DNA of 64,000 nt, taken from assembly GCA_044229975.1 (NCBI GenBank), contig JBGARZ010000023.1:1-64000 (forward strand), in the 5' to 3' direction. Both the position numbers and the translations under genes were made by a program. The notes beneath the pieces were generated by a model, which saw nothing but the letters and a program-made list of their open reading frames with translations, had not been told where the DNA came from and ran no database searches. Position 1 is the stretch's first letter. Each line of letters starts with the position of its first letter. Below, piece by piece: positions 5,066 to 50,201 of the stretch. The DNA comes from Polyangiales bacterium. GTDB taxonomy: Bacteria > Myxococcota_A > Polyangia > Polyangiales > Ga0077539.

Positions 5066-5170
5066 GGACGTTACTCCTTGGAGGTTCTGGCGGTCACGGG
5101 CGGGGCATACTGACAGCCGTTTCGCGCTCGAAGACGGGCCATGGGCCCTGGTGCGACGATCAGACGCACC

Positions 5171-6538: not shown

Positions 6539-9714
<3,176 letters not shown>

Positions 9715-33647: not shown

Positions 33648-33668
33648 CCTCGCGCATAACTTCGACAC
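33648..33668 (+). repeat. 21-bp direct repeat, copy 2
   Basis: CCTCGCGCATAACTTCGACAC, matching 18729-18749. Confidence 0.7.
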
Positions 33669-33677
33669 ACCGGCGGG

Positions 33678-34170: not shown

Positions 34171-34444
34171 ACTTGGGCAGGGGTGAGGAGCACGGTCCGT
34201 CCTCGGGTGCGAGGGGTGGCGTAGAGAACCGCTCTCATGCCCCCGGTCGGGCCGTGCGTTCAACCCCTGGGGAGCTCCTGCCCGGGGCTATGCTCGTTCA
34301 GCATGGCGCAGATAGACGGGTAGCCCGGTCTTGCTTCGCCCGGTCGCTCAGGTATCTGTCCCCAGACGCGCGGTCGCCCGCGCCGCGTGAGGACGCCGTC
34401 GTCGGAGAGCCCGACGGACACCCCACCGGAAAGACCGCCCAGAC

Positions 34445-35908
34445 ATGACAGGCCACTTTGCAGCGCGGGTCGGAATGCTTCTCGCGGGCATGTTGCTGAC
34501 CCCCGCGCCAGTGAGCGCGAACGGTCGCTTCCCGACGGCGGGCTACTTCGTCGCAGGCCCCGGGGTCCGCAATGACGTGTTCGCGCTGCGTACCACCTTC
34601 GGCGTGCTCGCCTCGCGCGACGCCGGGCAGACGTGGACGTGGGTCTGCGAGGCCGCCTACAACCAGATCGGCGCGAGCGACCCCACGCTCTCCATCGGCG
34701 CCGACGGAACCCTGGTTCTCGCCTCGTACCTCGGGCTGATTGCGAGCGACGGCGACTACTGCTCCTGGCCCAGGCTGGCCGGAGTGCCGCAGCGGGATTT
34801 CGCCGACGTGACCAACACCGCCGACGGGCGCTCGCTGGTCGCGCTCGCGGGGCCCGATGGTGAGAACGCGCTCTACCTCTCCAGCGACGCCGGCCACACC
34901 TGGGAGTTGGGGGCTCGCCTCACCGGATACGCGACCGAGACCGTGGACGTCGCGCCCGGCGATCGCCTGCGCGTGTACGTCACCGGCTACGGCAGCGGCG
35001 GGCGACCGGTGCTGCTGCGGAGTGACGACGGTGGTCGTACCGTGCGCGAGGTCACGAGGGATTTCCTGGGAAACCAGAACATCTATATCGCCGGGGTCGA
35101 TGCGACGCGCCCCGACATGATCTACCTCCGCGCCATGAACGGCCTCGCGACCACGCTGCTGCGCAGCGAGGACGGCGGGGCGACGATGCGGGCCGTCGGA
35201 CGGACCGCGCGGGACATGCTGGGCTTCGCGCTCTCCGACGACGGGGAGACCGTCTGGATCGCGAGCGCCGACCGCGCGGAAGGCATCCTGCGGTCGGAGC
35301 GCGGAGGGCCCTGGGTTCGCATGGCGGCGGACGTGGGCGTGAAGTGTCTGCGCTTCCACGCGGGCACGCTGTTCGTGTGTGCGGACGAGGCGCGCGACGG
35401 CTTCGCGCTGGGCTATTCCCACGACGGTGGCGACCACGTCGACCCGCTGCTCTCGTTCCGCTTGGTGGACGGGACGACCACGACGTGCGGCTCGAGCACC
35501 CAGGTCGGCGCCACCTGTCCCGCCCTCTGGTCCTCGGAGACGATCCTGCTGCGGAGCGTTGACGCGAGCGTGCCGAACGCTCCGGTCTTCCACGACGCCA
35601 GCACCGATCATGGGGTCATCACCGACCGCCTTCCGCCGCTCGACACCTACGTCCCGCCGTCGGACGGGGCGACGGTGCGCGACGCGGGTCGTGGACTCGA
35701 CGCGGCGGTCGTGAGCGGGACTGACGCTGCGATGGACGCTCAGCGTCCTCTCGACGCGGCGGTAGGATCGACCGGCCCCGCAGGTGGTTGCGGCTGCTAC
35801 GTCGCCAGTCGCGATGCATCGAGCGATCGGGGTGGGGCGTGCGTCGCGCTGGCCGTGTGGGTCACGTTCGCGGGAACATCAAGGCGCGCGCGGCGTCGGC
35901 GGCGATGA
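34445..35908 (+). CDS. BNR/Asp-box beta-propeller (NGRFP family) with MYXO-CTERM-like tail, paralog 4
   Basis: VSA-NGRFP; Asp-boxes; GGCGC...RRARRRR. Confidence 0.88.
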   Translation: MTGHFAARVGMLLAGMLLTPAPVSANGRFPTAGYFVAGPGVRNDVFALRTTFGVLASRDAGQTWTWVCEAAYNQIGASDPTLSIGADGTLVLASYLGLIASDGDYCSWPRLAGVPQRDFADVTNTADGRSLVALAGPDGENALYLSSDAGHTWELGARLTGYATETVDVAPGDRLRVYVTGYGSGGRPVLLRSDDGGRTVREVTRDFLGNQNIYIAGVDATRPDMIYLRAMNGLATTLLRSEDGGATMRAVGRTARDMLGFALSDDGETVWIASADRAEGILRSERGGPWVRMAADVGVKCLRFHAGTLFVCADEARDGFALGYSHDGGDHVDPLLSFRLVDGTTTTCGSSTQVGATCPALWSSETILLRSVDASVPNAPVFHDASTDHGVITDRLPPLDTYVPPSDGATVRDAGRGLDAAVVSGTDAAMDAQRPLDAAVGSTGPAGGCGCYVASRDASSDRGGACVALAVWVTFAGTSRRARRRRR

Positions 35909-37377
35909 GTCCCTCGCCAGAACGTCCCCTGGGTGGCCGGAGGCGACAGGCGGTGCGGTTGGGGATGCTGTTGGTGGCGACGGCCCTGAGCTCTGCGGAG
36001 GCGCGGGCGAACGGGCGCTTCCCCGGGGCCAACTACTTCGTGGCGGGGCCGGGTTCGCGCAACGACGTGTTCGCGCTGCGTACGACCTTCGGACTGCTGC
36101 TCTCGCGCGACGGTGGTCGGGCGTGGAGCTGGGTCTGCGAGGGGGCCTACGGGGCCATCGCGGGCGACCCCGCGCTCTCGATCGGAGCGGACGGCACCCT
36201 CGTGCTCGCGTCGTACGTCGGCCTGAGCGGCAGCAGCGGCGGTGACTACTGCACCTGGGCGCCTCTGGGAGGAGTTCCTGTGCGGGACTTCATCGACGTC
36301 TCGCAGACCGCGGACGGCCGGTCGATGGTCGCCCTCGCGGGGCCCGGCGGGGAGAACGCGCTCTACCTCTCGTCCGACGGCGGGCGCACCTGGAACCCCG
36401 GCGCGCGCCTCGTCGGGTACACCACGGAGACCGTGGACGTCGCGCCCAGCGACCCGACGCGGGTCTACGTCACCGGGTACGCGACCACGGGCTCGGGCGG
36501 ACCGGTGCTGCTGCGAAGCGACGACGGCGGTCGCACCGTTCGAGAGGCCACGCGCGACTTCCTCGGCGGCGAGAGCGTCTTCCTGGCCGGGGTGGATCTG
36601 ACGCGCCCCGACGTGATCTACCTGCGCGCCGTGCGCGGCCTCCCGACGACCCTGTTGCGCAGCGACGACGGAGGAATGACCGTACGGCTCGTCGCGCAAA
36701 CCGCGCGGGAGATGCTGGGCTTCGCGCTCTCTGACGATGGTGACACGGTGTGGATCGCGAGCGCCGATCCCGCCGGGGGGATACTGCGATCGGAGCGTGG
36801 CGGCCCATGGACGCGCACCGCAGCGGACCTTGGCGTGAAGTGTCTGCGCTTCCACGCGGGCACCCTGTTCGTGTGCGCGGACGAGGCGCGCGACGGCTTC
36901 GCGCTGGGCTATTCCCGCGACGGCGGCGACCACGTCGATCCGTTGCTCTCGCTGCGTCTGGCGGAGGGCGCGTCCGGGGCTTGCGGTCCAGGCACCCAGG
37001 TGGGCGGCGCCTGCGCTTCCCGCTGGGCGACAGAGACGATGCTGCTCCGAGACATCGACGCGAGCGTGCCAACCGCGGCGGTGTTCCACGACGGGAGCAC
37101 CGATCACGGAGTCGCACTCGATCGGGCTTCGCCAATCGACGGGCCGACCGGTCGCCTCGACGCGGGTCAACCAACCGACATGATGGTCCTTCCCCCTGGT
37201 GGCTGCGGGTGTCGCGTAGCGGGGCGGGGCGGAGGGCCAGCACGGGGCGTGACGGTGAGCGCGTGGCTCACCGCGGCGGTGGTGCTCGTCGGGCGTTTGA
37301 GGCGACGAGCGCCGGCGAGGAGTGCCCATCTCCCGGCAGCCCGACTTGCTCCCGCGCAAACGGCGAGGCTCGGTTGA
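35905..37377 (+). CDS. BNR/Asp-box beta-propeller (NGRFP family) with MYXO-CTERM-like tail, paralog 5
   Basis: ATGA overlap with paralog 4 and high similarity to it; GGCGCRV...GRLRRR. Confidence 0.88.
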   Translation: MSPSPERPLGGRRRQAVRLGMLLVATALSSAEARANGRFPGANYFVAGPGSRNDVFALRTTFGLLLSRDGGRAWSWVCEGAYGAIAGDPALSIGADGTLVLASYVGLSGSSGGDYCTWAPLGGVPVRDFIDVSQTADGRSMVALAGPGGENALYLSSDGGRTWNPGARLVGYTTETVDVAPSDPTRVYVTGYATTGSGGPVLLRSDDGGRTVREATRDFLGGESVFLAGVDLTRPDVIYLRAVRGLPTTLLRSDDGGMTVRLVAQTAREMLGFALSDDGDTVWIASADPAGGILRSERGGPWTRTAADLGVKCLRFHAGTLFVCADEARDGFALGYSRDGGDHVDPLLSLRLAEGASGACGPGTQVGGACASRWATETMLLRDIDASVPTAAVFHDGSTDHGVALDRASPIDGPTGRLDAGQPTDMMVLPPGGCGCRVAGRGGGPARGVTVSAWLTAAVVLVGRLRRRAPARSAHLPAARLAPAQTARLG

Positions 37378-37443
37378 CGGAAATGCGAGTGCTTTGATAG
37401 GGCAGTCTCGGAGTGTGCTGGCGCACCTCATTGGGAGGACATC

Positions 37444-37749
37444 ATGGATATCCGAACTGTCGCTTTTGCCGTCGCTTCGTTGGCTTTGGGTTTGGCTGCC
37501 GGAGACATCAGGGCTGAAACACCGATCACCATGCAGGAGGACGTGCTCCAGACACCTCCCGCGACCCCCTTGCAGCACTGCTGGCAAGAGTGCCATCCCG
37601 AGTGCCATCCGGTTTGCGTCCCCGAGTGCCATCCGGTCTGCCACCCCATCTGTGATGCCGATGGGCACTGCCACCAGGACTGTCACCAGGAGTGCCACCA
37701 GGACTGTCACCAGGAGTGCCACCAGGAGTGCCACCAGGTTTGCCGCTGA
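37444..37749 (+). CDS. Secreted (CHxx)n Cys/His-repeat peptide (TPLQ-leader type)
   Basis: GGAGG RBS; signal peptide; ATPLQ followed by 14 Cys at 4-residue spacing in two arms and 12 His; 12-bp DNA periodicity. Confidence 0.85.
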   Translation: MDIRTVAFAVASLALGLAAGDIRAETPITMQEDVLQTPPATPLQHCWQECHPECHPVCVPECHPVCHPICDADGHCHQDCHQECHQDCHQECHQECHQVCR

Positions 37750-37932
37750 CGAAGAGGCGGACCTCCTCGTCGGAAGCCCGCATGTAGAGAGCGAGTGCGC
37801 GCGTTGGCGAGGTTTCTTCCGGGGGGTGTCGCCATCGAAATCCGTCGAGGTGCGACGGAGGCAACGTATCGGGGATCGTCCAAGCTGCGAAGGCCCGATC
37901 GCCGCGAGGCGTGCCGCACCTGCAACCGTTGG

Positions 37933-39258
37933 GTGTACCTTCCCGGCGTGCTTCGACGAGCTCTCCTCGCAACCGCGCTGAGCTTCCTTCCAGCCACGGC
38001 CTACGGCAACGGACGCTTCCCCCAGGCGCAGGAGTTTCACCAAGCCCCGGGCTCGAACAGCGAGCTCATGGTCGTGCGCGCCACCTTCGGACTCATCGTC
38101 AGCGTCGACCGGGGCCAGCGGTGGGAATACTGGTGCGAGGACGCTCTGCAGTACTCCGACGGCTACGATCCGCCGCTGACGTACACCGCCAACGGCACGC
38201 TGCTCGTCGCCCTCGACAACGGCCTCTTGAGCACCCGCGATGGGTGTTCAGTTCGCCGCCAACCCGACCTCGAGTCCCTCAGCGTCAAGGACATCGCCTC
38301 GTCGCCCGACGGCCGCGTGACATGGGCGATCGCGGTGACCCGCAGCATACGACCCGACTCGCGCGTCGCACGTTCGACCGACCAGGGCCTCACCTTCGAG
38401 TTCGTCGGCGACCGCTTCGAGGGGGTGATGCTGGAAACCATCGAGGTCGCGGGCTCCGATCCGCTGCGGCTCTACGCCACCGGCACGCTGACCTCCGACG
38501 GCACCGCGGTGCTCTTCCGCACCGTGGACGGCGGCGTGCGCTGGGTGCGCGCCAGCGCGGGCTTCGGCGAGGCTAGCGGGGTGTACGTCTCCGGCGTCGA
38601 TGGGCATCGCCCGGAGGTCGTCTACCTGCGCGCGACCGCGGCCGGGCGGGACATGGACGCCGGCCCCGCGGGCAGCGCTGATGTGCTCTTCCGCAGCGAC
38701 GATGGGGGTGAGACGCTGCGCGAGGTGCTTCGTACCCGCGGCCCGATGCGGGGGTTCGGACTCTCCGACGACGGTCGACGGGTGTGGGCTGGCGGGCCCG
38801 AAGACGGCGTGTGGCGCTCCATCGACGGGGCAGCGCCCACGCGCTTTTCGGACGAGCCTGTCGACTGCCTCCGGTGGAGTTCGGGTGCCCTGTGGGCCTG
38901 CCGCGTCTTCACCCTCGGCGGCCCCTTGTTGCTGCGGAGCGACGGCGACAGCGCCTTCGTCACAGCGCTTTCGGCGCCTGAGGTTGGCGGTCCTCCGGTC
39001 CGTTGCCCGACCGGAACCGTCGCGAGCGGGGTGTGTCCGTCGCGGTGGAGCGTGGTGCGGCGATCTCTCGTTCAGCCGGCGGCGATCGATGCCTCGACCG
39101 ACCAGGGCGCGGCGGTCACGCAGCCGTCCTCGGCGGGCCATGGATGCCACGCCGGACCTGGGGCGCAGGGGGCTTGGAGCGCCTTCGTCGGGTTCGCCGT
39201 TGCGGCGATCGGACGGCGGCGGCGCACTCGCACCCTCCGCTCCCGCCCTGACGGCTGA
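37933..39258 (+). CDS. BNR/Asp-box beta-propeller (NGRFP family) with MYXO-CTERM-like tail, paralog 6
   Basis: AYG-NGRFP; YWCE; Asp-boxes; GHGCH...AAIGRRRR. Start approximate. Confidence 0.85.
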   Translation: MYLPGVLRRALLATALSFLPATAYGNGRFPQAQEFHQAPGSNSELMVVRATFGLIVSVDRGQRWEYWCEDALQYSDGYDPPLTYTANGTLLVALDNGLLSTRDGCSVRRQPDLESLSVKDIASSPDGRVTWAIAVTRSIRPDSRVARSTDQGLTFEFVGDRFEGVMLETIEVAGSDPLRLYATGTLTSDGTAVLFRTVDGGVRWVRASAGFGEASGVYVSGVDGHRPEVVYLRATAAGRDMDAGPAGSADVLFRSDDGGETLREVLRTRGPMRGFGLSDDGRRVWAGGPEDGVWRSIDGAAPTRFSDEPVDCLRWSSGALWACRVFTLGGPLLLRSDGDSAFVTALSAPEVGGPPVRCPTGTVASGVCPSRWSVVRRSLVQPAAIDASTDQGAAVTQPSSAGHGCHAGPGAQGAWSAFVGFAVAAIGRRRRTRTLRSRPDG

Positions 39259-39348
39259 CGAGCCGTGGGAACTTCCGAGCTCTCCGAAAGAACTACTGCC
39301 TCCCACTGAGCCGTCCCTCCAGGTTGCGGCCAACGCTCTGCGCCTGCT

Positions 39349-39643
39349 GGCGTTCAGCGATACCCGACGTACGACGCAGTTGCCCGTTGGCTTGTGACGT
39401 CAATCCCTCTAGAAGGCGTTACTTCTTGCCATCATAAAGGCAAGATATCCTCCGTCTGGATCCCTCCTAATCCGGGGCCGAGGGGCGCGAAGCGGAACCG
39501 ACGGCCTGTAGAGCACCTCTACAGAATGCCTCAGGCCGACAAATTAGCTAACGATTATAGCAAGTTATCGGCATGGCTCCACCGGGGTCTGCCGGAATCT
39601 GGCCGCTCGTGCTTCCACCGGGGTCTGCCGGAATTTGGCCGAT
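39349..39643 (+). other. Putative replication origin copy 1 (palindromes, AT-rich tract, DnaA-box-like 9-mer, 2 iterons)
   Basis: Inverted homolog of 44138-44464; AT-rich at 39541-39570; TTATCGGCA at 39565; CCACCGGGGTCTGCCGGAATYTGGCCG at 39579 and 39615. Confidence 0.65.
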
Positions 39644-39665
39644 CGCTCGGCCGGGCCACCGTCTG

Positions 39666-41181
39666 CTACCGCCCACTCAGTCGGGCGACAGCTTCTTCGA
39701 GCGCGCGTCCCATCTCCGCCTCGGGGTCCGCTTCGGCCCGGATCACGCTCCGCGTCCCGACCCCAAGAGTTTGGGTCACCTGGACCTGAGTCCAGCCCTT
39801 GGACCTGCGCCATGCGCGCAGCTCGCTGCCCGTCGGGATCGAGGGCACTGGGGCGGCTCGACGGGCGGGAGGTGGTGGATCAGGCGGTCGCGGACCCACT
39901 GGGGGGGTAGAGGTGACAGCGGCCCCCGAGCGTCCGTTCGCCGCCCGCTTGACACCATCGCACCTCGCCCAGACCTTCGACGCGTTGGAGTTCGGCCAAG
40001 TCGCGCTCGAGGGACGTCCAGGCGCGACCCGGCTTGTTGGAGTCGAACTTGATGCCCGCGGTCTCGAGGAGTCCCTGGCCGGTGAGCGTGACGCACTCCC
40101 GGCCCTTCGCGAGGTCCCAGCGCCAGTGGATCGGGAGGATCAGTCCCAGGGCGAGGGCGCAGGGGTGGCGCACATGGTCGATGCGCGCGAGGTCGGCCGG
40201 GGCGGGTGCCCAGAGTGATCCCAGGGTGCCGTCGCGGTCCCGGACACCCTCGTAGAGCGCGGGGTGGATGGCCAGCACGAGCCCCTCCAGCGCCCACTCG
40301 GAGTCGTAGATCGCCTCGGCCCGCTGCGTGATGCTGAGCACGGGGCCGCGCATCCGCAGCTCCCCGCTGCGGTGGTAGATGGCCAGTTCGAGCCGCGTCA
40401 GCGCTTCGACCTCGTCGGCGACGACCTTACGCACGGAGTCGTCGCGGCGCGCGCGGTCGGAGTACCCGAGCGCGTCCATGTGCGCCTCGATTTTCCACCG
40501 CACGAACCCCGTTCGCCCCTCCGTGGTGAGCAGCCGGTGCCAGGCCGCCCAGTGCCGGAGCCCCTGCCACCCGCACCACGCCCTCACGGCGTGGATGATC
40601 CGCTCGGGGAGTTCTCGGACGTCCAGCTGCAAGCGCACCTGCCGGGTGGGGGCGAGGATCTCGGCCCACCCGTCCATGACCGGCGTCTTGTGCGGTTGCC
40701 TGTCTTTCGGGCGGTCGCGCCAGCCGTTGAGCAGCGCGTGGTGCGCGGGACCCGCGTCGAGTGCCATGAACGGCCGCTCGCGGTCGCGCTGGGCCGCGCG
40801 GACCGCGTGAGCCGAGAGCGCCGACAACGCCAGGACCCTCGCCAGCTCCCAGACCCTGGACAGGAAGTCCTGCTCGCCCGCGACCCCTTGCTCGGCGGCC
40901 ATGACCAGCGAGGCTGCACCCCACGTCCAGTCGAAGGCCGCCCCGCCGCGGATTCCGGGAAGGGTCGCCGGTCTGTCCGGTGTACCGGTTCCCCGATCGA
41001 CTGGGCGGTTCGCGCCGTTGGCTTGGAGCGCGAGGACGGTGCTGAACACCTCGCCGCGCGCTTCCAGATCGCTGCGAAGGTCGGCGAGGCCTTCCGGGCC
41101 GCTCGCCGTGGCCAGGAGCCGGTCGATCACCAGGCCGAGGTCCTTGTCCGACACCAGGGCTCGAAGCGCGTTCCGCAGCAC
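39666..41181 (-). pseudogene. Rep-like protein with C-terminal XRE HTH, frameshifted paralog of 44751..46397
   Basis: Shares WQGLRHWAA, EVEALTR and LALGLILPIxWRW. The C-terminus (LYPP/QWVRDRL/TGSELRAWR) is split over three frames near a G7 run at 39901. Confidence 0.7.
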
Positions 41182-41229
41182 CTGGGCGTCGGCTCGGCGT
41201 CACGGACACGCCGCGCGAGCACGCGAAGG

Positions 41230-41735
41230 AGGTGCTGAGGGAGCTGCTGGCGATGAGGGTCCAGAAGACGCTCATGCTGAGCGGAGACCACCAGGGGTCG
41301 CCGACGCGGTGGCCCGGCAGGTCGGCCTGACCGACGCGAAGGGCGACCTGCTCCCCGAGGACAAGGGCCGCGTCATCGACGAGCTCGCGAAGGCCGGCGT
41401 CGGCGTCGCCATGGTAGGCGACGGGTTCAACGACGCCCCAGCGCTCGCCTGATCGACCGTCGGGATCGCCATGCGGGCAAGCGGTTCGGACGTGGCGCTG
41501 AAGACAGCAGACATCGTGCCCATGGGTGACGACCTGCGGGCTTTGCCCTTCGCCGTGGGCCTCAGCCGCGCCTGCCGGCGGGTCATCCAACAGAACCTCT
41601 GGGCGAGTCTCGGCATGGTCGCGTTCCTCATCCCAGCAACTGTGTTCGGGATCGCCGGCATCGGCGTCGCGGTCGTGCTGCACGAAGGTTCGACACTCCT
41701 TGTCGTGACCAACGCCCTGCGCCTGCTGGCATTCA
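41230..41735 (+). pseudogene. C-terminal fragment of a P1B-4 heavy-metal ATPase
   Basis: [24 protein letters not shown], then an in-frame TGA, then VVLHEGSTLLVVTNALRLL. Confidence 0.85.
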
Positions 41736-41844
41736 TTGCCCCCATTTCACAGCGAAACCATAGTTGCTTCTCCGCCTTTCCTTCTGGACGTCATTCCTTC
41801 ATGCCGTCACGAAGGCAAGATGGTCGCGTCGTACCGTGCGTCCA

Positions 41845-41923
41845 CGCCGCGTGCTTCCACTGCGACCCTCTGCTGGAGGGGTGTGACCCCGATCCGGCGT
41901 GACATCAGTCGTCGAGCTGTTGA
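41845..41923 (+). repeat. ~80-bp direct repeat, copy 1
   Basis: CGCCGCGTGCTTCCACTGCGACCCTCTGCTGG...GTCGTCGAGCTGTTGA, near-identical to 43827-43910. Confidence 0.9.
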
Positions 41924-41924
41924 G

Positions 41925-43448
41925 TTAGGGGGGTCGAGTCGGCGACTGTGACCCTGACGGCCCATGCTTCCGCGGCGGGGACCGACGGCGAGCCGGGACG
42001 ATCAGTCCCAGGACTGCCAGCACGAGCGACGCGCCACCCCCACCGGGCGCGGCGTGCGCCCCCGCGCGGCAGTTGCACCCGTCGCGCGGCGCTGGTGCGC
42101 CAACGGCGTCGAGCACGGTGTCGGGGGCATCGAGCACCCGGCCCGCGTCGCGGGCGTCGGCCCCGCCGAGATCCTCAGACACGTCGGGCGCGGCGCCGAG
42201 GTCCGCGGGCAGCGTCCCGGCGTCGAGCGGCGCCTGCATCCCGCTCGCGTCGAAGACGGCGGCATCGTGGAAGACCGGCGCGCGCGGCGCGCTCGCGTCG
42301 ATGCTCCGAAGCGGCGCCGAGACCGCCGACCAGAAGTCGGCGCACGTCGCCCCGACGCTGGCGTCGCCGCACATCGGAGAGGTGCCGGTGAGCCGACGTA
42401 GCGAGAGCAGCGGGTCGATGTGCTCGCCGCCGTCGTGGGAGTAGCCCAGCGCGAATCCGTCAATCACCTCGTCGGCGCACACGAAGAGCAGCCCGGCGTG
42501 ATAGCGCAGGCACTTCACACCAACGTCGCCACCGACACGCGTCCACGGGCCACCGCGCACCGATCGGCGGATGCCCTCGGCGCGAGCGGAGCTCGCGGTC
42601 CAAACGGTCTCGCCGTCGTCGGAGAGCGCAAAGCCCACCATCTCCTCCGACGTCTCCCCGATGGGGCGTAGGGTCAACCCGCCGTCATCGCTGCGCAGCA
42701 ACACCGTCCCGAGACCACGGGTACCTCGCACGTACACCACGTCGGGCCGGCGCGGATCGACGGCAGCGAGGAATACCCCATGGGCGCCGGCAAAGTCCCG
42801 CGCGACCTCGCGCACCGAGCGCCCGCCGTCGTCACTGCGCAGAAGAACCGGGATGCCGCCGCGAACATAGGCCGTCACGTAGACTCGCCGCGGGTCGTTG
42901 GGCGCCACGTCCGCGGTCTCGCTGAAGTACCCCATCAGCCGCGCGCCAGCTTCCCAACTCCGCCCGCCGTCGGACGAGAGCACCAACACGTCGTCGCCGG
43001 TGGGCCCGGCCAACGCAACCATGGCGCGCCCGTCGGCGGTGTGGGTAATGTCGGCAAAGCCCCGCGTGGGCGCGCCCGCCGGACGCGTCCAGCGACAGTA
43101 CGCCCCGTTGCTGGATGCGAGCCCGGTGAAGGTTGCGATCACCACGGTGCCGTCGGCGCCGATGGAGAGCGACGGATCGGCAGCGCCAGGGGCATTGAAG
43201 CCCTCCTCACAAACCCAATCCCACTGCCGCCCGCCGTCTCGCGAGAGCAGCAGACCGAAGGTCGTGCGCAGCGCTAGGACGTCGTTGGTCGCGCCCGGGC
43301 CCGCGACGAAGTATCCCGCTGCGGGGAAGCGCCCGTTGGCCTGCGCCTCGCCCGCGAAACCGAGAGCCAGCGCCAGACCCAGTGCCCCCACCCTACCCCG
43401 CACCGCTCCCCCGCACATCCAATGCCCACCCGCCGTTGGTGCTGTCAT
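41925..43448 (-). CDS. BNR/Asp-box beta-propeller (NGRFP family) with MYXO-CTERM-like tail, paralog 7
   Basis: AQA-NGRFP; close to paralogs 4 and 5; DGCNCRA...LIVPARRR. Confidence 0.87.
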   Translation of the reverse strand: MTAPTAGGHWMCGGAVRGRVGALGLALALGFAGEAQANGRFPAAGYFVAGPGATNDVLALRTTFGLLLSRDGGRQWDWVCEEGFNAPGAADPSLSIGADGTVVIATFTGLASSNGAYCRWTRPAGAPTRGFADITHTADGRAMVALAGPTGDDVLVLSSDGGRSWEAGARLMGYFSETADVAPNDPRRVYVTAYVRGGIPVLLRSDDGGRSVREVARDFAGAHGVFLAAVDPRRPDVVYVRGTRGLGTVLLRSDDGGLTLRPIGETSEEMVGFALSDDGETVWTASSARAEGIRRSVRGGPWTRVGGDVGVKCLRYHAGLLFVCADEVIDGFALGYSHDGGEHIDPLLSLRRLTGTSPMCGDASVGATCADFWSAVSAPLRSIDASAPRAPVFHDAAVFDASGMQAPLDAGTLPADLGAAPDVSEDLGGADARDAGRVLDAPDTVLDAVGAPAPRDGCNCRAGAHAAPGGGGASLVLAVLGLIVPARRRSPPRKHGPSGSQSPTRPP

Positions 43449-43512
43449 CCCTACTCCCGCGATCCTGACACGGAATGCCCGGCTTCCGCCCCGGACAAGG
43501 GCTCGATGACTT

Positions 43513-43531
43513 CCTACTATCCGTCGTAGTA
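43513..43531. promoter_or_regulatory. Putative BlaI-type operator upstream of BNR paralog 7
   Basis: CCTACTATCCGTCGTAGTA has the same arms and spacing as 14634-14652. Confidence 0.5.
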
Positions 43532-43599
43532 TTTTCGCGACTCGCGCGGACGTTCCGCGCCAGGAGACGGACGGAACGTGACCAAACTGCAGTCTGACC

Positions 43600-43826
43600 T
43601 GCGGCGCGCTCACGCTCGTCGGCTGGGTGGCCGGGAAGCTGGGCGCCCCTCCCTCACCTGCAACGTGCCCTTCTGGCTCGCGTACGCGGCGGGCGGGTGG
43701 TTCGCGCTGCGTAAAGCGGTGCTCGTCATCCGCGCGAAGAAGTTCGAGATCGACTTCCTCATGCTGGTGGCCGCCGCGGGCGGGGGCGCTCGGGGAGTGG
43801 TTCGAGGGGGCGCTGCTGCTCTTCCC
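43600..43826 (+). pseudogene. N-terminal TM fragment of a P1B heavy-metal ATPase
   Basis: LAYAAGGWF...KFEIDFLMLVAAAG / ALGEWFEGALLLF in shifted frames, cut off by the 80-bp repeat. Confidence 0.75.
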
Positions 43827-43910
43827 CGCCGCGTGCTTCCACTGCGACCCTCTGCTGGTGGAGGGGTGTTGACCCCGATCCGGCGTGGCATCAGGTCGTC
43901 GAGCTGTTGA
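43827..43910 (+). repeat. ~80-bp direct repeat, copy 2
   Basis: Matches 41845-41923 with small indels. Confidence 0.9.
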
Positions 43911-44137
43911 ACTCCCCGTGATCCTGCGCGAGGTGACCAGTGGGTCCGCGACCGCAGCACGGCGCAGCCACGCCCGACGACACCACCGACCCGTAGCGGA
44001 TCGGCGAAACCTCTCCAGACAGCGACTCAGCAAGGGCGCCCGTACATGTGCGCGGCGGGCCTCGGACGCAGCTGCTCGGGGGCGACCTCGCGGCGCTCAC
44101 GCCATGGGTGCCGCCAAAGCACAGAGGCCCGGCCACA

Positions 44138-44464
44138 CGATCGGCCAAATTCCGGCAGACCCCGGTGGAGGATTCGGCCAGCTTCCGGCAGATCCTGGTG
44201 CCAGATCGGCCAAATTCCGGCAGACCCCGGTGGGGACATGTCGATAACTTGCTAGAATCGTTACCTAATTTTCTAAACCAAGGCCTTCTGTACAGGTACT
44301 CTACAGAGCCGTCGGTTCCGCTTCGCTCCTCTCGGCCCCGGATTAGGAGGGATACGGCCGAAGGATGTCTTGCCTTCATGACGGCAAGAGGCAACGCCTT
44401 CCAGATGGAGTGACGTCACGAGATAGCGGGCAGTGGCGTGGTACACCGGGTATCGTTGAACGCC
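44138..44464 (-). other. Putative replication origin copy 2 (3 iterons, DnaA-box-like 9-mer, AT-rich tract, palindromes)
   Basis: TCGGCCAAATTCCGGCAGACCCCGGTGG-type units at 44141, 44174 and 44206; TGTCGATAA at 44239; AT-rich at 44244-44282. Confidence 0.7.
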
Positions 44465-44683
44465 CCTCGTTTCGCAGCGAAACCGTAGGCGTCCACCCGC
44501 CTTTCCATGTAGACGTCATTCCTTCCTGACGTCACGAAGGCAAGCCTTCGTTCCGTCACCTTATGTGCCGGACCGTCCTCCAGACGGGCCGAGCACCAGA
44601 AGGTTCTCCTCAGAGGAGAACCTCAGAGAGGACGTCAGAAAGTTGATTTCTCCTGTACTTCCAATGACTTGCAACAGGGCCTT

Positions 44684-44837
44684 CCGCAGGATCTGCCGGA
44701 TTCCTGCCGGTTCACCCGCAGGATCTGCCGGATTCCTGCCGGTTCATCCGCTAGGTCTGCCGGATTCCTGCCGGTCCACCCCTCCTGGCCAGTTCATCCG
44801 CAGGGTCTGCCGGATTTCTGCCGGTCACCTGCCGGTC
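44684..44837 (+). repeat. Iteron-like tandem array, 32-bp period
   Basis: CAGGATCTGCCGGATTCCTGCCGGTTCAYCCG-type units at 44687, 44719, 44751 and a fourth at 44801; overlaps the 3' end of the rep-like gene. Confidence 0.85.
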
Positions 44838-46397
44838 GAGACCCGCCCGGATGGCTCGCCCGAGCGGCTCGTCAGGCGCCGCCTCGGCTCCCCGAATGGT
44901 CCTCTCCCCCACGCCCAGCATCTTCGCCGCTTGCGCCTGCGTCCAACCTTGCTGCAAACGCCAGGCGTGTAGTTCGCCACCTGTTAGCAACAAGGGCGTC
45001 GCGAGCTGCTCGGCCGGCTCGATTCCATGAACCAATCGGTCACGGACCCACTGCGGCGGGTAGAGGTGGCAACGCCCGGTACGGGACCGCGCCTCGTTCG
45101 GGTTCCACCGGGCGAGCCCGAGTCCCCCCACGCGCTGCAGCTCCGCGAGGTTGCGGTCGAGCGCCGTCCAGGCCCTCCCGGGGTCGTGCGAAGACACGGG
45201 GATCCCAGCCGTGTCGAGGAGGCGCTCTCCCGTGAGGGTCAGATGATCCAACCCGTCGGCGGTGTCCCATCTCCACCGGATCGGCAGGATCAGTCCGAGG
45301 GCGAGCGCGTACGGGAAGCGGGCGTGGTCGATCGTCGCCAGCTCGGTAGGAGCCGGGGCCCAGAGCCTCCCGATGGAGCCGTCGGCGCGGCGGACCCCCT
45401 CGTACAACGCCGGGTGGATGACGAGCTCGAGCCCCTGGAGCGCCCACTCGGACCCGCGCAGGGCCTCGCCGCGCTGGGTCACGGCGAGAACTGGGCCGCG
45501 CAGGCGGAGGGTGCCGTCTGAGTTGTAGACGGCGACCTCCATGCGCGTGAGGGCTTCGACCTCGGCGGCGACGGTCGCCCGCAGCTCGGGCGTTCGCCGC
45601 GAGCGGTCGGCGTAGCCGAGGGCGTCGAGGTGGTCTTCGAGCGACCAGCGGATGCGCCCCGTACGTCCGGCCTCGGTGAACAGGCACTGCAGCGCGGCCC
45701 AATGCCGGAGCCCCTGCCACGACCGCCACGCTTTGATGGCATGAACGATCCGCTCGGGCAGCTCCTGGACGTCGAGCCGTAGCCCGAGCTGTTTGCTGGG
45801 GTGGAGGATCTCGGCCCACCCTTCGCGCTGGGTCGTCGTGTAGGGACGCCGACGATTCTTCGGCAGGTCGCGCCACCGGTCGATCAGCGAGTGGTGAACG
45901 TTGCCGGCGTCCAGCGCTATGAAAGGCCGCGCTCGGTCGCGTTCGATCTCGCGCCACGCGAGGTAGGCGCGGGCCGCGAGTGCGACAGAGATGGGCGGTT
46001 CATCGTCCGCGTCGTCGCGGCCGCCCGAGGCGAAGAGGCCGCGGATGCGGTCGCAGCAGGCAGCCGCTGCGGCGGGGTCCGGCGCCCGGTCGCCGAGCCA
46101 GGCGACGACATCGGCGGGGGCGGCGGCCAGCGGCCAGAGCGGCAGGGCAGAGCCGCCCTCCACGCTGACCTCGATGGCCATCCAGACGGTCGGGTCGGCG
46201 CCGAGTTCGGCGCCCGCCGCCGTCAGCGCGGCGAGGTGCGGCTCGGTGTCGGAGAGGCCGGAGGCGCGCACCCGATCGACCACCGCCGCGCGCACGGCAT
46301 CAGCGACCAGCGTTCGGAGCGCGCCGTCGAGCGCGTCGAGGTCGGCTCGCACGAGCAGAGCACGGGCGTCGGAGCGGCGCACGACGAGAGGGGTCAT
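44751..46397 (-). CDS. Putative replication initiator (Rep-like) with C-terminal XRE-type HTH
   Basis: Downstream of parA and its partner, abutting iterons; GELHAWRLQQGWTQAQAAKMLGVGERTI HTH. Function inferred from context. Confidence 0.6.
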   Translation of the reverse strand: MTPLVVRRSDARALLVRADLDALDGALRTLVADAVRAAVVDRVRASGLSDTEPHLAALTAAGAELGADPTVWMAIEVSVEGGSALPLWPLAAAPADVVAWLGDRAPDPAAAAACCDRIRGLFASGGRDDADDEPPISVALAARAYLAWREIERDRARPFIALDAGNVHHSLIDRWRDLPKNRRRPYTTTQREGWAEILHPSKQLGLRLDVQELPERIVHAIKAWRSWQGLRHWAALQCLFTEAGRTGRIRWSLEDHLDALGYADRSRRTPELRATVAAEVEALTRMEVAVYNSDGTLRLRGPVLAVTQRGEALRGSEWALQGLELVIHPALYEGVRRADGSIGRLWAPAPTELATIDHARFPYALALGLILPIRWRWDTADGLDHLTLTGERLLDTAGIPVSSHDPGRAWTALDRNLAELQRVGGLGLARWNPNEARSRTGRCHLYPPQWVRDRLVHGIEPAEQLATPLLLTGGELHAWRLQQGWTQAQAAKMLGVGERTIRGAEAAPDEPLGRAIRAGLDRQVTGRNPADPADELARRGGPAGIRQT

Positions 46398-46447
46398 GGC
46401 GTTTCGAGAAGAGAGCCGTGCAGAGACATCGGAATGCGCTGTCTCAG

Positions 46448-46843
46448 TCAGGCCCGGAGTCGGGCGCGCAAGAGGGCCTTCAAGTCGGCCTCGGACTTCG
46501 CTTCGCTCAGGTCGAGACCCTCGCTCTCCAGCGCATCGACGAGCGCCCGTAGGATCTCCGCCCGCCGGATGGCGGCGCCGGTCTTGGCCCGGATGTCGTT
46601 TGCCAGGCGGTCGAGGAACACGATCTGTCTGTTGAAGAGGACCACGGTGACCTTGGTCCATTCCTCGTGGGTGGCAGGTCGCCCCAGGGCGGGTGCAGCC
46701 GCCTTCACGGCAGTTGGTTCGACCAGCATCGGTGGGGCCGGCTCAGCTGCCAGCGTCGCTGCCGTTTCGGGCTCGGCGGGCGCCGCCTCTGCTGCGGTGG
46801 CCGAGAAGATGTTCATCTTGCCCAGCCTGCTCGGCTTGTTCAT
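46448..46843 (-). CDS. Small ParA partner, ribbon-helix-helix-like centromere-binding protein
   Basis: Disordered Ala/Pro N-terminus, then KVTVVL...RAEILRALVD (strand-helix-helix pattern); immediately downstream of parA. Confidence 0.65.
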   Translation of the reverse strand: MNKPSRLGKMNIFSATAAEAAPAEPETAATLAAEPAPPMLVEPTAVKAAAPALGRPATHEEWTKVTVVLFNRQIVFLDRLANDIRAKTGAAIRRAEILRALVDALESEGLDLSEAKSEADLKALLRARLRA

Positions 46844-46878
46844 GCGTTCCTCACTTCCATTATGACGGCAGTCCGCCC

Positions 46879-47652
46879 TTACTTCTTGCCGTCTTGACGG
46901 CACCTTTGCAAGACCTCAGCAGCGAGCCGGCGATAGGCGTCGGCGCCGCTTGAGTTCGGGTCGTGCCCGAAGATCGTCTCGCCGAAGCTCGGGGCCTCCG
47001 AGAGGCGGACGTTGATCGGAATCTCTGTCTTGAAGACGCGCTCGCCGTAGTGCCCTCGGATGAGGTCGATGACCTCCCCGGTGACCTTCGGCCGACGGTC
47101 CACCTGGGTGAGCACCAGTCCCAACAAGGTGGCCTTTGCACCGGTGCCCCGGCGAAGCAGTTCCGTGGCCTCCATCAGGTTCACGAGTCCCTCGACGGCC
47201 AGGTACTGGGGTGTGACCGGCACCAGGAAGGCGTCCGCGGCCACCAGGGCGTTGATGGGCACCATCGAGAGCGAGGGAGGGCAGTCGAGGAGGATGAAGG
47301 CGTAGTCGCCTCTCACCGGCGCCAGGGCCTCCACCAGACGGCGCTCGCGTCCCTTCACGTCGGCGAGGGCGAGGTCGGCGTTGGCCAGGGCCATCGAGCC
47401 AGTGAGCAGGTCGAGGCCCTCGACGGCCGTCGGACGGATCGCGTCGCGAATCGGCAGCCCGTCGAGCAGGACCTCCGCCGACGAGGGGGCGAGCTTGTCG
47501 CGCGCGACCCCGAGCGAGAAGGACGCCGACCCCTGGCTGTCCAGATCGGCTAGCAGCACGCGCCGCGTCTTCGTGGCGAGCCCCGCCGCGAGGTTGACCG
47601 CCGTGGTCGTCTTGGCGACGCCACCCTTGTTGTTGACCAGCGCGATGATCAT
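46879..47652 (-). CDS. parA: ParA/Soj family partitioning ATPase
   Basis: NNKGGVAKTTT, LADLDSQG, ILLDCPPSL, LSEAPSFG. Confidence 0.95.
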   Translation of the reverse strand: MIIALVNNKGGVAKTTTAVNLAAGLATKTRRVLLADLDSQGSASFSLGVARDKLAPSSAEVLLDGLPIRDAIRPTAVEGLDLLTGSMALANADLALADVKGRERRLVEALAPVRGDYAFILLDCPPSLSMVPINALVAADAFLVPVTPQYLAVEGLVNLMEATELLRRGTGAKATLLGLVLTQVDRRPKVTGEVIDLIRGHYGERVFKTEIPINVRLSEAPSFGETIFGHDPNSSGADAYRRLAAEVLQRCRQDGKK

Positions 47653-47921
47653 GCCATCCGTCCTTCCGCCTAGACGGCTGGGTAGCATGACGCCCTGACT
47701 TCTTTCCATCCCAAAGTGGACCGGCATACTGTGGTCGTCGAAGGGGACCTTCCCCACCTTCGCCATGCCCACAACTACCCCTGCGAGGTCGGCGTAGAGC
47801 TCTGCGCGTGCCAGGCTCCGCCGATTCACATGCAGCTCCATGCGGGTAGACCAGGCGCACAAGCCGTTGCCACAACCGTCCCCTGCGCTTGCGGCGCCGA
47901 CCAGATCACGGGGGTGGTGCG

Positions 47922-50201
47922 ATGAGCCTCCCCGTCCAGGAACGTCGCGGGGTGTCCCCCGTCGCGCGATCGGGGTTCGCGCGGGACACGCGTATCGAAC
48001 CCAATGCCCTCACCGCAATCAAGCAGGAGGCGGCGTTTGGTTGGCTCTGCTGCCAGCTGTTGCCCGGGATGTCGAGCATTCGCGTGCTCCCCGGCGAGGT
48101 GGGCACCGAGAGGGACTGGGTCAGGCCCGCGATCCAATCGAACGTGGACCCTCGGGACGCCGTCGCCGCACACCTCCTCGCGGGCGACAGAAGGAACTCG
48201 GTGTCGTTGCCGGGGTACACGCGAGAGCCCGTGCGGTCGGTCGCGTTTGCGTACTCGAAAAGGGCGCGCACCTCGCGCCTGACAATCCACCTGTCTGGCC
48301 GCGTTCCAGGCTACGAGGTCGGCACGTTCGTCCAGCGCCTCGGCGACCGAGTGGGCCACAGCCGCCTGTTGGTCACCTCGGTCAGCGCCATGGTCGGCGG
48401 TCGCAGGGAGCACCGATGCCACGTCCGCGTGCCGGAGATGGAGGTGTTATGCGCGGTGACCGCGGTCTCTCAACTGCTCGAAGACTGCGGCTTCGCGCAG
48501 CGTAGCGGGGTGGTCGAGGTGTTCCCGGACAGCCGGTTTGCCGGCCTGCCCTTCGGGCTGCTCGAGAACGAGTTGCTGCGCTACGGCGACGGCGGTCTGG
48601 AGTCCGAGCCCGAGTGCGGGTGGCGGCGGCTGGTCGCGGAGTTTCAGGCGTTGGAGACCCTCGACTTCGAGCGTCTTCTTCCGCCCTCCTCCTCCGACCC
48701 AGAAGTCACCACATCTCGCGCCGCCGACCCGCTCGCTCCGGCGACTGTCGCCCCTCGTGCTGCCGACCCACCGATCTCCTCGACGGCGCCGTCCGTGGCT
48801 CCCGGGAGCGTTGATGCCTACTTCGAGCTGGTCTGTCACGGGGTCGCCCTCGTGTCCGTGCAGCCAGAGTCCTGCCCATGGACCCCGGAGGGGGGCTGGA
48901 AGTGGTTGAAGACGCGAATCGACGTGAAGCGTTCGGTTGTCGCGCACCTGCTGGCCTCCCAGACGGGGCAGCCCTCGCGGCTCGGGCGACGCGGCATCCG
49001 CGCGTCCGGGCTCTCGTACCGGCCCGATGCGACGACGTCCCGCATCACGATCGACCTGGACGGCAAGCACGGGTACGAGCCCGCCAAGGTCGTCGCTGCT
49101 CTCGCCGCCATCGTGGGACGCGACCGCCTGATGGTGACCGCGAGCAGCGGCTCCCCCGGGCACTACCATTGTCACGCCCGGGTCCCACCGATGCGCGTGG
49201 ATGAGACGGTCGCGGCGTCGCGCGCGCTGCTCGACAGGGCCGGGTTCAAGTGGAAGCTGGGTGGCGCGGAGACCTACCCGAGCACTGGCAACTGTCGCCT
49301 GCCGTTCGGCCTGGGCGGGTGCGAGCTGTTCGAGGACGAGCAACTCCAGGTCGGCCATCAGGAGACGTGGCAGGAGCTCACGAAGCGGCTCTGTGGGATG
49401 CCGACGCTGGTGTTCCAATCGGGGTCGCCGCCTGGTAGCCGAGCGCGTCGGCACGTCCGCTCGCGCGCCCGGGCCCGTAACGCCGAGACGGCTGCCCGCA
49501 TCGAGAGGTGGCGCGCGAACGGGGTCGAACGCCACGAGCGAAACCAAGCGCTGTTCGACCTCGTGGTGAACGGTCGTTGTCGGGGCCTCGCGGAAGATGA
49601 GGTCCTTCGCGAGCTCCAGGGATGGATCGACGGAGGCGGCCTGGCGCGGAGCGCCGTGGCGCGGAAACCCGGCGGCATCGCCAAGCAGCGTAACCAGGTT
49701 CTCCCGGATGTTGTGGAGCGGGTGTATGGCTACCCTCCCCCCGCGAAGCAGAAGGCCAACCTCACGGAGACAGAGATCGCCTGGGTCGTCGAGATCGCCA
49801 AAGAGCGATGCCCCAAACGGCGCGCGCACGCGGTGGTGCTCCTGCTCGACGTGCTGCCATGGTTCAAGGCCGCGTGGCTCGAGGGCAGGACGGACGTCAC
49901 GCTCGGGCAGAAGGAGTGGGCCCGAACCCTCGGGCGACGGGGGGATGGCTACGCGTTGCTCCGGCGACAACTGCACCTGTTCAGGCAGACGTCCCACTAC
50001 GTGATTGGCGAGCGCTCGACCACCTGGTGCCTGACCGAGCCCGTCCCCTTCGAGTCTCGCCATCCGACCGAGCGTCTGGTTTCGACGAACCCGCGTCCCG
50101 CGACGAAGCGCACTGGTTCGAAGCCCTCCCGCCTCCAAAAGACGGCGTGGGTTCTGGCGGCCGCTGAGCGGGTAGCTCGCGGCGTCGTCCGGGATGGGTG
50201 A
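47922..50201 (+). CDS. AEP-superfamily primase/replicase-like protein with duplicated catalytic domain and PriCT-like helix
   Basis: Second repeat has ITIDLDG, SSGSPGHYH and CRLPFG, followed by HERNQALF; first repeat is alignable but degenerate. Confidence 0.6.
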   Translation: MSLPVQERRGVSPVARSGFARDTRIEPNALTAIKQEAAFGWLCCQLLPGMSSIRVLPGEVGTERDWVRPAIQSNVDPRDAVAAHLLAGDRRNSVSLPGYTREPVRSVAFAYSKRARTSRLTIHLSGRVPGYEVGTFVQRLGDRVGHSRLLVTSVSAMVGGRREHRCHVRVPEMEVLCAVTAVSQLLEDCGFAQRSGVVEVFPDSRFAGLPFGLLENELLRYGDGGLESEPECGWRRLVAEFQALETLDFERLLPPSSSDPEVTTSRAADPLAPATVAPRAADPPISSTAPSVAPGSVDAYFELVCHGVALVSVQPESCPWTPEGGWKWLKTRIDVKRSVVAHLLASQTGQPSRLGRRGIRASGLSYRPDATTSRITIDLDGKHGYEPAKVVAALAAIVGRDRLMVTASSGSPGHYHCHARVPPMRVDETVAASRALLDRAGFKWKLGGAETYPSTGNCRLPFGLGGCELFEDEQLQVGHQETWQELTKRLCGMPTLVFQSGSPPGSRARRHVRSRARARNAETAARIERWRANGVERHERNQALFDLVVNGRCRGLAEDEVLRELQGWIDGGGLARSAVARKPGGIAKQRNQVLPDVVERVYGYPPPAKQKANLTETEIAWVVEIAKERCPKRRAHAVVLLLDVLPWFKAAWLEGRTDVTLGQKEWARTLGRRGDGYALLRRQLHLFRQTSHYVIGERSTTWCLTEPVPFESRHPTERLVSTNPRPATKRTGSKPSRLQKTAWVLAAAERVARGVVRDG

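Follow-up and report, generated by a model that had tools for sequence, protein, structure and literature searches.

What is the function of a non-coding element of ~300 bp that occurs twice, in inverted orientation, beside two related genes of a Polyangiales genome? The element lies in a stretch of 64,000 nt (the window: positions 1 to 64,000 of contig JBGARZ010000023.1, assembly GCA_044229975.1), where its two copies are found between positions 39349 and 44464. An earlier examination of the letters alone, the sequence-only reading, had taken it for a replication origin near the 3′ ends of two Rep-like paralogs, here called genes A and B, in two related replicons that had become fused or nested. 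The element proves to be a sequence conserved on the 3′ side of the genes of an unannotated family with a predicted iteron-initiator fold, and we consider it moderately probable that it serves or once served as a vegetative origin (oriV). That its arrays of tandem repeats (iterons) are the cognate binding sites of the adjacent protein we hold to be very likely. The best reading would be a relic oriV of a new Myxococcota Rep family, one that is detectable by structure only.

The two copies are readily defined. The self-comparison that the sequence-only reading had proposed, by BLASTN over positions 30001-54000, gives a single strong inverted match between copy 1 (39349-39655, + strand) and copy 2 (44464-44161, − strand), with 80.8% identity over 308 columns (E 4e-78), and a separate repeat search recovers the same match in three ungapped pieces. 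The inverted pair is thus real. In full the copies extend over 39349-39662 (+) and 44464-44126 (−), and they are the only ones in the whole assembly (10.0 Mb, 39 contigs). Every block that had been named is present in both. The sequence TGACGTCA lies at 39395-39402 in copy 1 and 44418-44411 in copy 2, the hairpin CTTGCC-N8-GGCAAG at 39425-39444 and 44388-44369, and each copy has the GCGAAGCGGAACCGACGGC block, an A/T-rich tract and TTATCG(G/A)CA. The palindrome CTGTAGAG-N3-CTCTACAG is at 39506-39524 in copy 1, where N3 is CAC; that of copy 2 (44306-44288) has one mismatched arm (CTGTACAG). Copy 1 has two iterons spaced by 36 nt, and copy 2 has three, at 33 and 32 nt, so that the suggested spacing of about three helical turns is found in both. 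Exact matches to TCTGCCGG are almost confined to such places, 10 of the 11 in the window falling inside three origin-like arrays.

How do the copies stand to the genes? Copy 1 ends 4 nt from the stop codon (39666) of the open reading frame (ORF) that encodes the helix-turn-helix (HTH) of gene A, and copy 2 starts 287 nt from the stop codon of gene B (44751). The proximity to the 3′ ends of Rep-like paralogs that had been claimed thus holds for both. Copy 2, however, is inverted with respect to gene B, whose own array (44674-44837) lies in between. Nor is copy 2 the origin of gene B, since B has its own array of a different kind and the iterons of copy 2 are of the type associated with gene A, called A-type below.

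Comparison with other genomes divides the element into two parts. The left part of copy 1 (39349..39473, +), comprising a spacer with TGACGTCA and the first hairpin, is common to the sequence downstream of a P-type ATPase gene and is not kept in orthologous elements. This removes the left third (GTGACGTCA, CTTGCC-N8-GGCAAG and ATCCCTCCTAATCC) from the conserved footprint in which it had been placed. Judging by the alignments, the conserved A-type unit is only the right ~200 nt; the left ~100 nt is a spacer shared with the 3′ flank of the ATPase, because partial copies of the left end occur at 41691-41821 and 44464-44544, and because contigs of related organisms join the two directly. These contigs come from public small-share DNA runs (0.05-0.06). 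In runs X4 and X5 a left end like that of copy 2 is joined to the 3′ end of the ATPase (joint 41730/44461), and in run X1 (record 1) the origin-like region of gene B passes into the ATPase-downstream sequence (44515 to 41820), skipping copy 2 and the adjacent gene BNR4. The ATPase gene is convergent with these modules.

The right part of copy 1 begins with a conserved core (39474..39524, +), defined by the alignments as a GC hairpin with a near-invariant GCGAAGCGGAACCGACGG block (39474-39506) followed by the palindrome. Next comes an A/T-rich spacer (39525..39579, +), a candidate unwinding element, which includes the non-conserved TTATCGGCA; its minimum GC content in a 40-nt window is 0.38 compared with 0.70 for the locus, and its sequence differs among orthologs. 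The two A-type iterons (CACCGGGGTCTGCCGGAATyTGGCCGmTCG) occupy 39580..39647 (+), one unit of the spacer-proximal triad being absent. Copy 2 has the same plan on the − strand. Its left spacer, with hairpin and TGACGTCA (44340..44464), is head-to-head with a second copy of the same spacer at 44464; the region 44234..44339 holds the GC hairpin block (44339-44307), the palindrome and the A/T-rich spacer (44287-44234); and the three iterons at 44233-44204, 44201-44172 and 44168-44139 (region 44126..44233) correspond collinearly to the spacer-proximal triad seen in intact modules. On the iteron side copy 2 faces the 5′ end of BNR4 and has no rep gene.

In other genomes the element keeps constant company. 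We assembled 26 loci with homologs of the gene from a collection of species-representative genomes, nine of them from a single metagenome-assembled genome (MAG). BLASTN of both copies against these gives matches to the right two-thirds in L007, L018, L019 and L020, directly after the gene and with the iterons against the stop codon. A 41-nt degenerate core pattern has four matches in a metagenome collection (L034-L037), and all four are directly 3′ of the same kind of gene. Thus each of the eight external occurrences is a single copy adjoining an A-type gene, which bears out the suggestion that the element would be found beside rep homologs in metagenomes, and the position of copy 1 relative to gene A is the canonical one.

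How general is the arrangement in the family? Tandem Repeats Finder detects an array with a period of 30-37 nt about 0-450 nt after the gene in 23 of the 26 loci; L005, L026 and L025 have no such array there, the last ending at a contig edge. A regular-expression scan shows that the orientation of the iterons relative to the gene is uniform in all loci, and the arrays often begin inside its last codons. Each iteron is bipartite, with a variable, clade-specific 5′ arm followed ~11 nt on by the family-wide core CCGGCAGAC; the unit is ~27-34 nt and the spacing 32-37 nt. Five types can be distinguished by the arm. Type A (TCGGCCAAAT) is found in copies 1 and 2 and in L007, L018-L020, L029 and L034-L036; type B (GACCGGCAGGAAT) in the array of gene B, L004 and L006; type C (ATGTTGCAGAT) in a further copy on contig C30 of the window's genome and in 11 loci; type D (ACCCGCCAGAT) in L011 and L015; and type E (AACCGGACAAAAA) in L022, L024 and L027. 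On a maximum-likelihood tree of 30 Rep cores (L029 and L036 were left out, their matched segments being too short), in which the A clade has support of 96/96, iteron type changes 6 times. The minimum is 5, the mean for shuffled labels is 17.3, and none of 200 shuffles is as low. Iteron type therefore follows the phylogeny of the Rep proteins, an association that we treat as descriptive and not as a formal test because related sequences share labels.

Beyond the iterons the organization is equally regular. A stretch of low G+C content directly follows the last iteron in all 28 regions compared; there the lowest GC content of a 40-nt window is 0.25-0.50, the loci as a whole having 0.66-0.72. By this compositional measure alone, the unwinding element that had been proposed stands as a candidate throughout the family. 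A strong palindrome and then a GC-rich hairpin lie beyond the low-G+C spacer across the family. Alignments of six and of eight A-type elements both show the block GCGAAGCG.A.CCG.CGG without variation, and the palindrome varies in a compensatory manner, with CTGTAGAG/CTCTACAG in one set of four sequences and CTTTAGAG/CTCTAAAG in another (GC in 4, UA in 4). The DnaA-box-like TTATCG(G/A)CA fares less well, for the orthologous elements have TTACGAGCA and TTACAGAAG in its place.

Gene B (44751..46376, −) is an intact member of the family, with 541 aa as analysed, in a frame that is open to 46742; its start is uncertain. A search of a protein collection clustered at 90% gives 90 relatives of B, of which the named ones are ‘hypothetical’ or ‘XRE-family regulator’, mostly from Polyangiales, Myxococcota or ‘Deltaproteobacteria’ MAGs. 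An exhaustive profile search extends this to 840 representatives at E ≤ 1e-3, 326 at ≤ 1e-10 and 183 at ≤ 1e-30. Beyond the C-terminal HTH there is no Pfam, NCBIfam or PHROG match in A or B, so that by these libraries they belong to no known initiator family, Rep_3 and similar ones included. The L020 and L010 proteins likewise have no match in these libraries outside the HTH, and among 40 divergent members 31 match HTH families only and nine match nothing, none having a match on the core. In the ESM Atlas the nearest cluster is unnamed, and its commonest phylum is Myxococcota.

Predicted structure provides the connection that sequence does not. An AlphaFold2 model of B, made from a 20-sequence alignment (pLDDT 76.6, pTM 0.74), was compared with the PDB using Foldseek. 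Ranks 1-21 are all initiators of iteron plasmids or RctB, with E values from 1.3e-3 to about 0.1 and probabilities of 0.87-1.00. The model superposes on pi bound to iteron DNA (2nra) with a score of 11.2 over 213 of 252 residues, on domains 2-3 of RctB with 10.8 over 216 (5tbf) and 10.2 over 220 (5ubf), on RepE with single-stranded DNA (8ac8) with 8.7 over 205 of 216, and on many entries of RepE54 with ~8 over ~200-210. All these superpositions fall on residues 149-446, while residues 464-518 match Cro, SinR and HipB. The protein is thus predicted to consist of an N-terminal domain, a double winged-helix core (aa 149-446) with the tandem WH1-WH2 fold of the initiators, and an XRE HTH (aa 464-518), and the claim that the neighbouring paralogs are Rep-like is sustained by the model. 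In function and in fold the closest systems would be the double winged-helix iteron replicons and RctB with its origin ori2.

Genes A and B are 54% identical in a MAFFT alignment and 64% over 249 aa by tblastx. BLASTP with composition-based statistics gave a false no-match for the two proteins (39880-41181 versus 44751-46661) in spite of their 54-64% identity over about 300 aa, a pitfall for high-GC sequences rich in Ala and Arg. Gene A (39880..41199, −) is far closer to its orthologs elsewhere, with 93% aa identity to the L018, L019 and L020 proteins over 354 aa compared with about 52-54% to B.

The canonical module can be read from these orthologs. It runs ParA, orf151, Rep, and then iterons, A/T-rich spacer, palindrome and GC hairpin, and seven canonical loci (L007, L018-L020, L034, L035 and L037) have ParA and orf151 directly upstream on the same strand. 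In the window the ParA-type partition ATPase (46879..47862, −; AAA_31, E 1e-48) is 81-95% identical to those of the canonical loci. It is followed by orf151 (46448..46903, −), a small conserved ORF with 58-86% aa identity in those loci and with no match in Pfam or to any family; we infer that it is a candidate partition adaptor. What follows orf151 here is not gene A. Aligned with the window, L020 matches 47715-46448 (its 4212-5473, 88% DNA identity), then 41197-40949 (5622-5870, 83%) and 40953-39578 (6088-7471, 88%). Because the matches stop at 46448 and resume at 41197, a segment of about 5.2 kb (41198..46447) is nested between orf151 and gene A. Within this segment lie gene B, intact and with an origin-like array of its own, the BNR gene, the fragment of an ATPase gene, and copy 2, which is an orphan. 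The uninterrupted form of the module is seen in a contig of a related organism (run X4, record 6). Two related replicon modules nested one in the other, as had been suggested, is therefore an apt description, with ~5.2 kb that carry the B module inside a module of A type.

The interrupted module has decayed. Compared with orthologs of ~590 aa, gene A has lost its start and been severed from the upstream operon, has an in-frame deletion of ~72 aa, and is frameshifted ahead of the HTH, where about 12 aa are missing. The frameshifted HTH survives as a detached ORF (39666..39899, −) that aligns with the C-terminus of B. With these lesions gene A is a pseudogene. Copy 2 still has all three iterons of the triad along with the spacer and the hairpin, and its palindrome is kept but for one mismatch. 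Three members of the family occur in the genome, A, B and the one on contig C30, and no intact A-type gene was found in the assembly, which is 93% complete. Since the adjoining A-type Rep is a pseudogene and copy 2 is orphaned and inverted, both copies of the element are most likely relics in this genome; as a speculation, they could still titrate Rep. Gene B in contrast is full length and has its own array, spacer, palindrome and hairpin. The B origin-like region (44568..44837, −) has 4-5 B-type iterons at 44837-44674, with a 32-nt period and overlapping the last ~29 codons of the gene, a palindrome with 10-bp arms (44622-44602) and a GC hairpin (44590-44568).

Such clustering is not peculiar to the window. 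The MAG that contributes nine of our loci (G002: L004-L006, L009, L016, L018, L025, L026 and L029) has 17 family matches; a single 53-kb contig holds three modules, each of another type, and some matches are fragments at the ends of contigs, so nesting and clustering of modules is common. The flanks of the canonical module vary from locus to locus, and include an AbiEii toxin, a serine recombinase, insertion sequence (IS) and Mu transposases, ArsR and a heavy-metal ATPase. The family occurs in 12 of 41 related genomes, all in the window's own family-level group, with 0-17 matches per genome. Variable cargo and patchy distribution are the behaviour of an accessory replicon. The C-type member on contig C30 (G000:C30:133500-136000) has six iterons and the palindrome AAAAGGTTCCTTA-TAAGGAACCTTTT, and it is followed ~570 nt downstream by a conserved gene, the 5′ DNA of which matches closely among L010, L014 and C30; from this shared DNA, C-type modules keep the same neighbour in at least three loci, unlike those of A type. 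An A-type module in a metagenome contig (L036:1084-4455) lies beside flagellar genes (flagellin, FliD, FliS and FlaG). These are unexpected for Myxococcota, and hint at a wider host range or a mobile context.

How might such an origin work? In the mechanism we envisage, each iteron would be bound by one Rep monomer, whose WH1 and WH2 domains would occupy two half-sites separated by one turn of the helix, as they do in the complexes of RepE54 and pi. Between three and seven monomers bound on one face of the helix would bend or distort the DNA, and the adjacent low-GC spacer would be opened. The palindrome together with the hairpin may provide a second recognition site, read by a host factor or by the dimer-type XRE HTH of the Rep protein itself; the latter is a candidate because XRE HTH domains usually read symmetric sites as dimers.

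What else might the arrays and the palindrome be? The arrays could be partition centromeres, or copy-control or operator sites, with the HTH protein serving as the centromere-binding or regulatory partner of ParA while replication starts elsewhere. The A-type order parA-orf151-gene on one strand, with the array behind, does recall sopA-sopB-sopC; a ParA-like gene lies within 6 kb in 13 of the 26 loci; the protein has an XRE HTH; and copy-control arrays are found downstream of the rep genes of P1 and F. Yet the core of the protein has the fold of pi, RctB and RepE, rather than that of ParB or a ribbon-helix-helix, and orf151 is a separate candidate for the adaptor. Moreover parA-orf151 is directly upstream only in the A-type clade (four of the 26 genome loci and three metagenome loci), the B-type relatives L004 and L006 and the C-type loci being without it, and the parA region is marked by a different motif, TGACG(G/T)CA. 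The A/T-rich spacer adjoining the array, present in all clades, is a feature of origins. On this evidence we think a centromere or control site unlikely.

The hairpin-palindrome core might instead be a small structured RNA, or a set of terminators between convergent genes, leaving the iterons a purely regulatory role. A check of covariation had been advised in order to exclude a non-coding RNA. RNAalifold on eight sequences predicts two hairpins, in which one pair of the palindrome changes on both sides; the covariation term is however only −0.22 kcal/mol, the remaining pairs are invariant or broken, and Rfam has no match at E ≤ 1 in positions 33000-52000. A symmetric DNA site accounts for the compensatory change equally well. 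In hairpin 1 the loop varies no more than the stem, which argues for recognition of sequence and not just of structure. The C-type palindrome lies between an A-run and a T-run, as a bidirectional terminator would, but that of A type has no T-run. Structured RNA or terminators thus seem very improbable. We give still less credence to the idea that the inverted copies are terminal repeats of a transposon, or recombination sites, around a 4.5-kb segment. It has in its favour that the copies are inverted and bracket a cargo-like segment (A, the ATPase fragment and BNR4), that several internal repeats near the ends recall those of Tn7 or Mu, and that the region is heavily rearranged. Yet in all seven external loci where both flanks are available there is a single copy by rep and no inverted partner within 4-6 kb. 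The outer ends run on into homologous ATPase-flank sequence with no duplicated target at 39349 or 44464, no transposase adjoins the copies in the window, and the iterons are 230-300 nt from the outer ends.

A replication origin is therefore preferred on the comparisons above, and a number of observations weigh against it. It is unusual for an origin to lie 3′ of rep and for its iterons to run into the end of the coding sequence. There is no conserved DnaA box, as a site within one mismatch of TTATCCACA is present in one of 28 regions (copy 2) in a scan that left out five loci without regex-detected iterons. Relatedness inflates the association of iteron type with clade. The Rep assignment comes from predicted structure, with no link to initiators at the level of sequence, and the family profile searched against all PDB sequences matches only HTH proteins of the HipB/Cro type, with no match to RctB. 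Using tblastn, gene B finds no family match in 72,556 PLSDB plasmids or in 50,697 phage records, and no relative was found in IMG/VR; no sequenced plasmid is known to use the family. None of four complete small contigs has overlapping ends. Contig C29, to which the window belongs, has no end overlap, its GC skew gives no origin signal, and its G+C content is that of the genome. The cumulative GC-skew minimum of C30 (~140 kb) is near its rep locus, and we give this no weight.

Is the locus then part of a plasmid or of a chromosome? NadE, a core gene that is 78-82% identical in five of five congeners, lies 6 kb to the right on the window's contig, and for this reason an integrated element fits better than a free plasmid. 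By congener synteny NadE sets the core border on the right, with no border set on the left. Most simply, then, modules of plasmid origin have become integrated into a contig that resembles a chromosome, or are decaying inside it.

It is instructive to compare the proposed origin with well-studied systems. Like the iteron theta replicons (R6K gamma-ori with pi, mini-F ori2 with RepE, and pPS10 with RepA), it has tandem same-sense iterons by rep, phased by whole helical turns and specific in sequence to the Rep clade, and an A/T-rich stretch flanking the array. A criterion of three or more such iterons agrees with the arrays of 23 of the 26 loci; in the window copy 2 has three, B has 4-5 and copy 1 only two. 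Unlike them, the family has no sequence similarity to Rep_3 or other Pfam initiators; the protein has 540-600 aa, with an extra N-terminal domain and the C-terminal XRE HTH; the array is 3′ of rep and extends into its last codons; no DnaA box is conserved; and there is a conserved palindrome and GC hairpin beyond the spacer. The iterons of known plasmids are ~19-22 bp, whereas those here are bipartite units of ~27-34 nt at intervals of 32-37 nt. With F sopABC and P1 parABS the A-type modules share the order parA, small gene, large DNA-binding gene and tandem array, sopA-sopB-sopC in F. They differ in that the protein adjacent to the array has a Rep fold and is not a ParB, and most members of the family have no such adjacent parA.

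What the family has in common with the RctB/ori2 system of Vibrio cholerae chromosome 2 is confined to the fold of domains 2-3. The sequences are not similar, the XRE HTH stands at the C-terminus instead of RctB domain 4, and the patchy, multi-copy distribution (0-17 matches per genome) is not that of a fixed chromosome initiator. The sites differ in type as well, those of RctB being described as 12-mers and 39-mers (PMC5395669). Within the phylum the comparison is with pMF1 of Myxococcus fulvus, presented in PMC8538405 and PMC3235114 as the only characterised autonomously replicating myxobacterial plasmid. As described there, it likewise has a large Rep-associated ORF without database homologs, a type Ib-like par system and dispersed iterons, but its ParB iterons, with a AGATGTCT motif (PMC3235114), are unlike the present arrays. 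The pMF1.14 protein, from the replication gene of this parCAB plasmid, was tried as a relative and rejected: the hhalign probability is 0.5%, it has no match in Pfam, NCBIfam or PHROG beyond the HTH, and B finds no match in PLSDB, which holds pMF1. We found no description of the Rep family in the literature searched. The terms Myxococc*, RctB and XRE do not occur in the main text of a preprint on a winged-helix initiator superfamily drawn from plasmid databases (10.1101/2024.09.03.610885).

A second motif is associated with these modules. The palindromic TGACG(G/T)CA has nine distinct sites in the window, giving 13 matches where 4.7 are expected, and none of 100 shuffles reaches 13. Seven of the nine are within 39.3-46.9 kb (39395, 41802, 44379, 44411, 44527, 46863 and 46895), in the left parts of both copies, the partial copies and the parA/orf151 junction; the other two are at 20162 and 62759. 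In canonical loci it is found at the parA/orf151 junction in L018, L020 and L034, just before parA in L007, and just beyond the origin core in L019 and L020 (sites L018:5438, L020:5025 and 7745, L034:1366 and 1398, L019:8097 and L007:3850). Possibly it is a partition or operator site, bound for instance by orf151.

The remaining features of the neighbourhood are as follows. The region is ~70% G+C, and for this reason reading frames were picked by third-position G+C; they were annotated with Pfam, NCBIfam and PHROGs. To the left of the element are three BNR/Asp-box (sortilin-like) paralogs (34445-39258, +), and a remnant of the 3′ end of a heavy-metal P-type ATPase (39312..39356, +) abuts the left end of copy 1, with 80% identity to 41691-41735 at the end of a C-terminal ATPase fragment. 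This fragment (41471..41728, +), the last ~86 aa of a heavy-metal P-type ATPase, is followed by the partial left-end spacer copy at 41739-41821. BNR4 (41925..44033, −), a sortilin-like BNR/Asp-box paralog of the three + strand genes, is cargo, and lies outside the replicon proper. The partial ATPase-downstream spacer copy at 44464..44544 (+), 82% identical to 41739-41819, belongs to the B module. No tRNA or tmRNA genes were found in the window. Two of the four BNR paralogs have weak, sub-threshold matches to the MYXO-CTERM sorting signal, and one contains a coding repeat with a 12-nt period (37577-37750, eight ACTGCCACCAGG-like units). An 88-nt direct repeat of 92% identity links 41841-41923, just past the BNR4 stop codon, with 43823-43910 in the 5′ coding part of BNR4, and is probably the stump of a further tandem BNR paralog. 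Farther off, a stretch of ~390 nt (~27743-28132) matches several contigs of the congener G001 with 88-91% identity, some near contig ends, and looks like a dispersed repeat or an IS fragment.

What would such origins mean for the Myxococcota? A 2021 review describes myxobacteria as having single chromosomes, with one autonomously replicating plasmid, pMF1, having been found (PMC8538405), and as only one is available, genetics in most myxobacteria relies on integrating vectors. Here a family of 183 clusters (E ≤ 1e-30), annotated only as ‘hypothetical’ or ‘XRE regulator’, has a predicted iteron-initiator fold together with a cognate array, spacer and palindrome, and the window is an example of the nesting, inversion and decay of its modules in a chromosome-like context. 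If these are working replicons, Myxococcota MAGs would be hiding a pool of plasmids or of their integrated forms, the superfamily of double winged-helix initiators would be extended to a lineage missed by sequence methods and plasmid databases, and defined rep-ori cassettes would become candidate vectors. We suggest more tentatively, as a proposal slightly less probable than its negation, that initiators of the RctB/pi fold, with a C-terminal XRE HTH and no Pfam model, together with a 3′ origin of bipartite iterons, spacer and palindrome, form the main replicon system of Myxococcota plasmids and chromids, modular, nested and often present several times per genome. If that is true, an intact rep-plus-flank cassette would provide the long-sought replicating vector for the myxobacteria.

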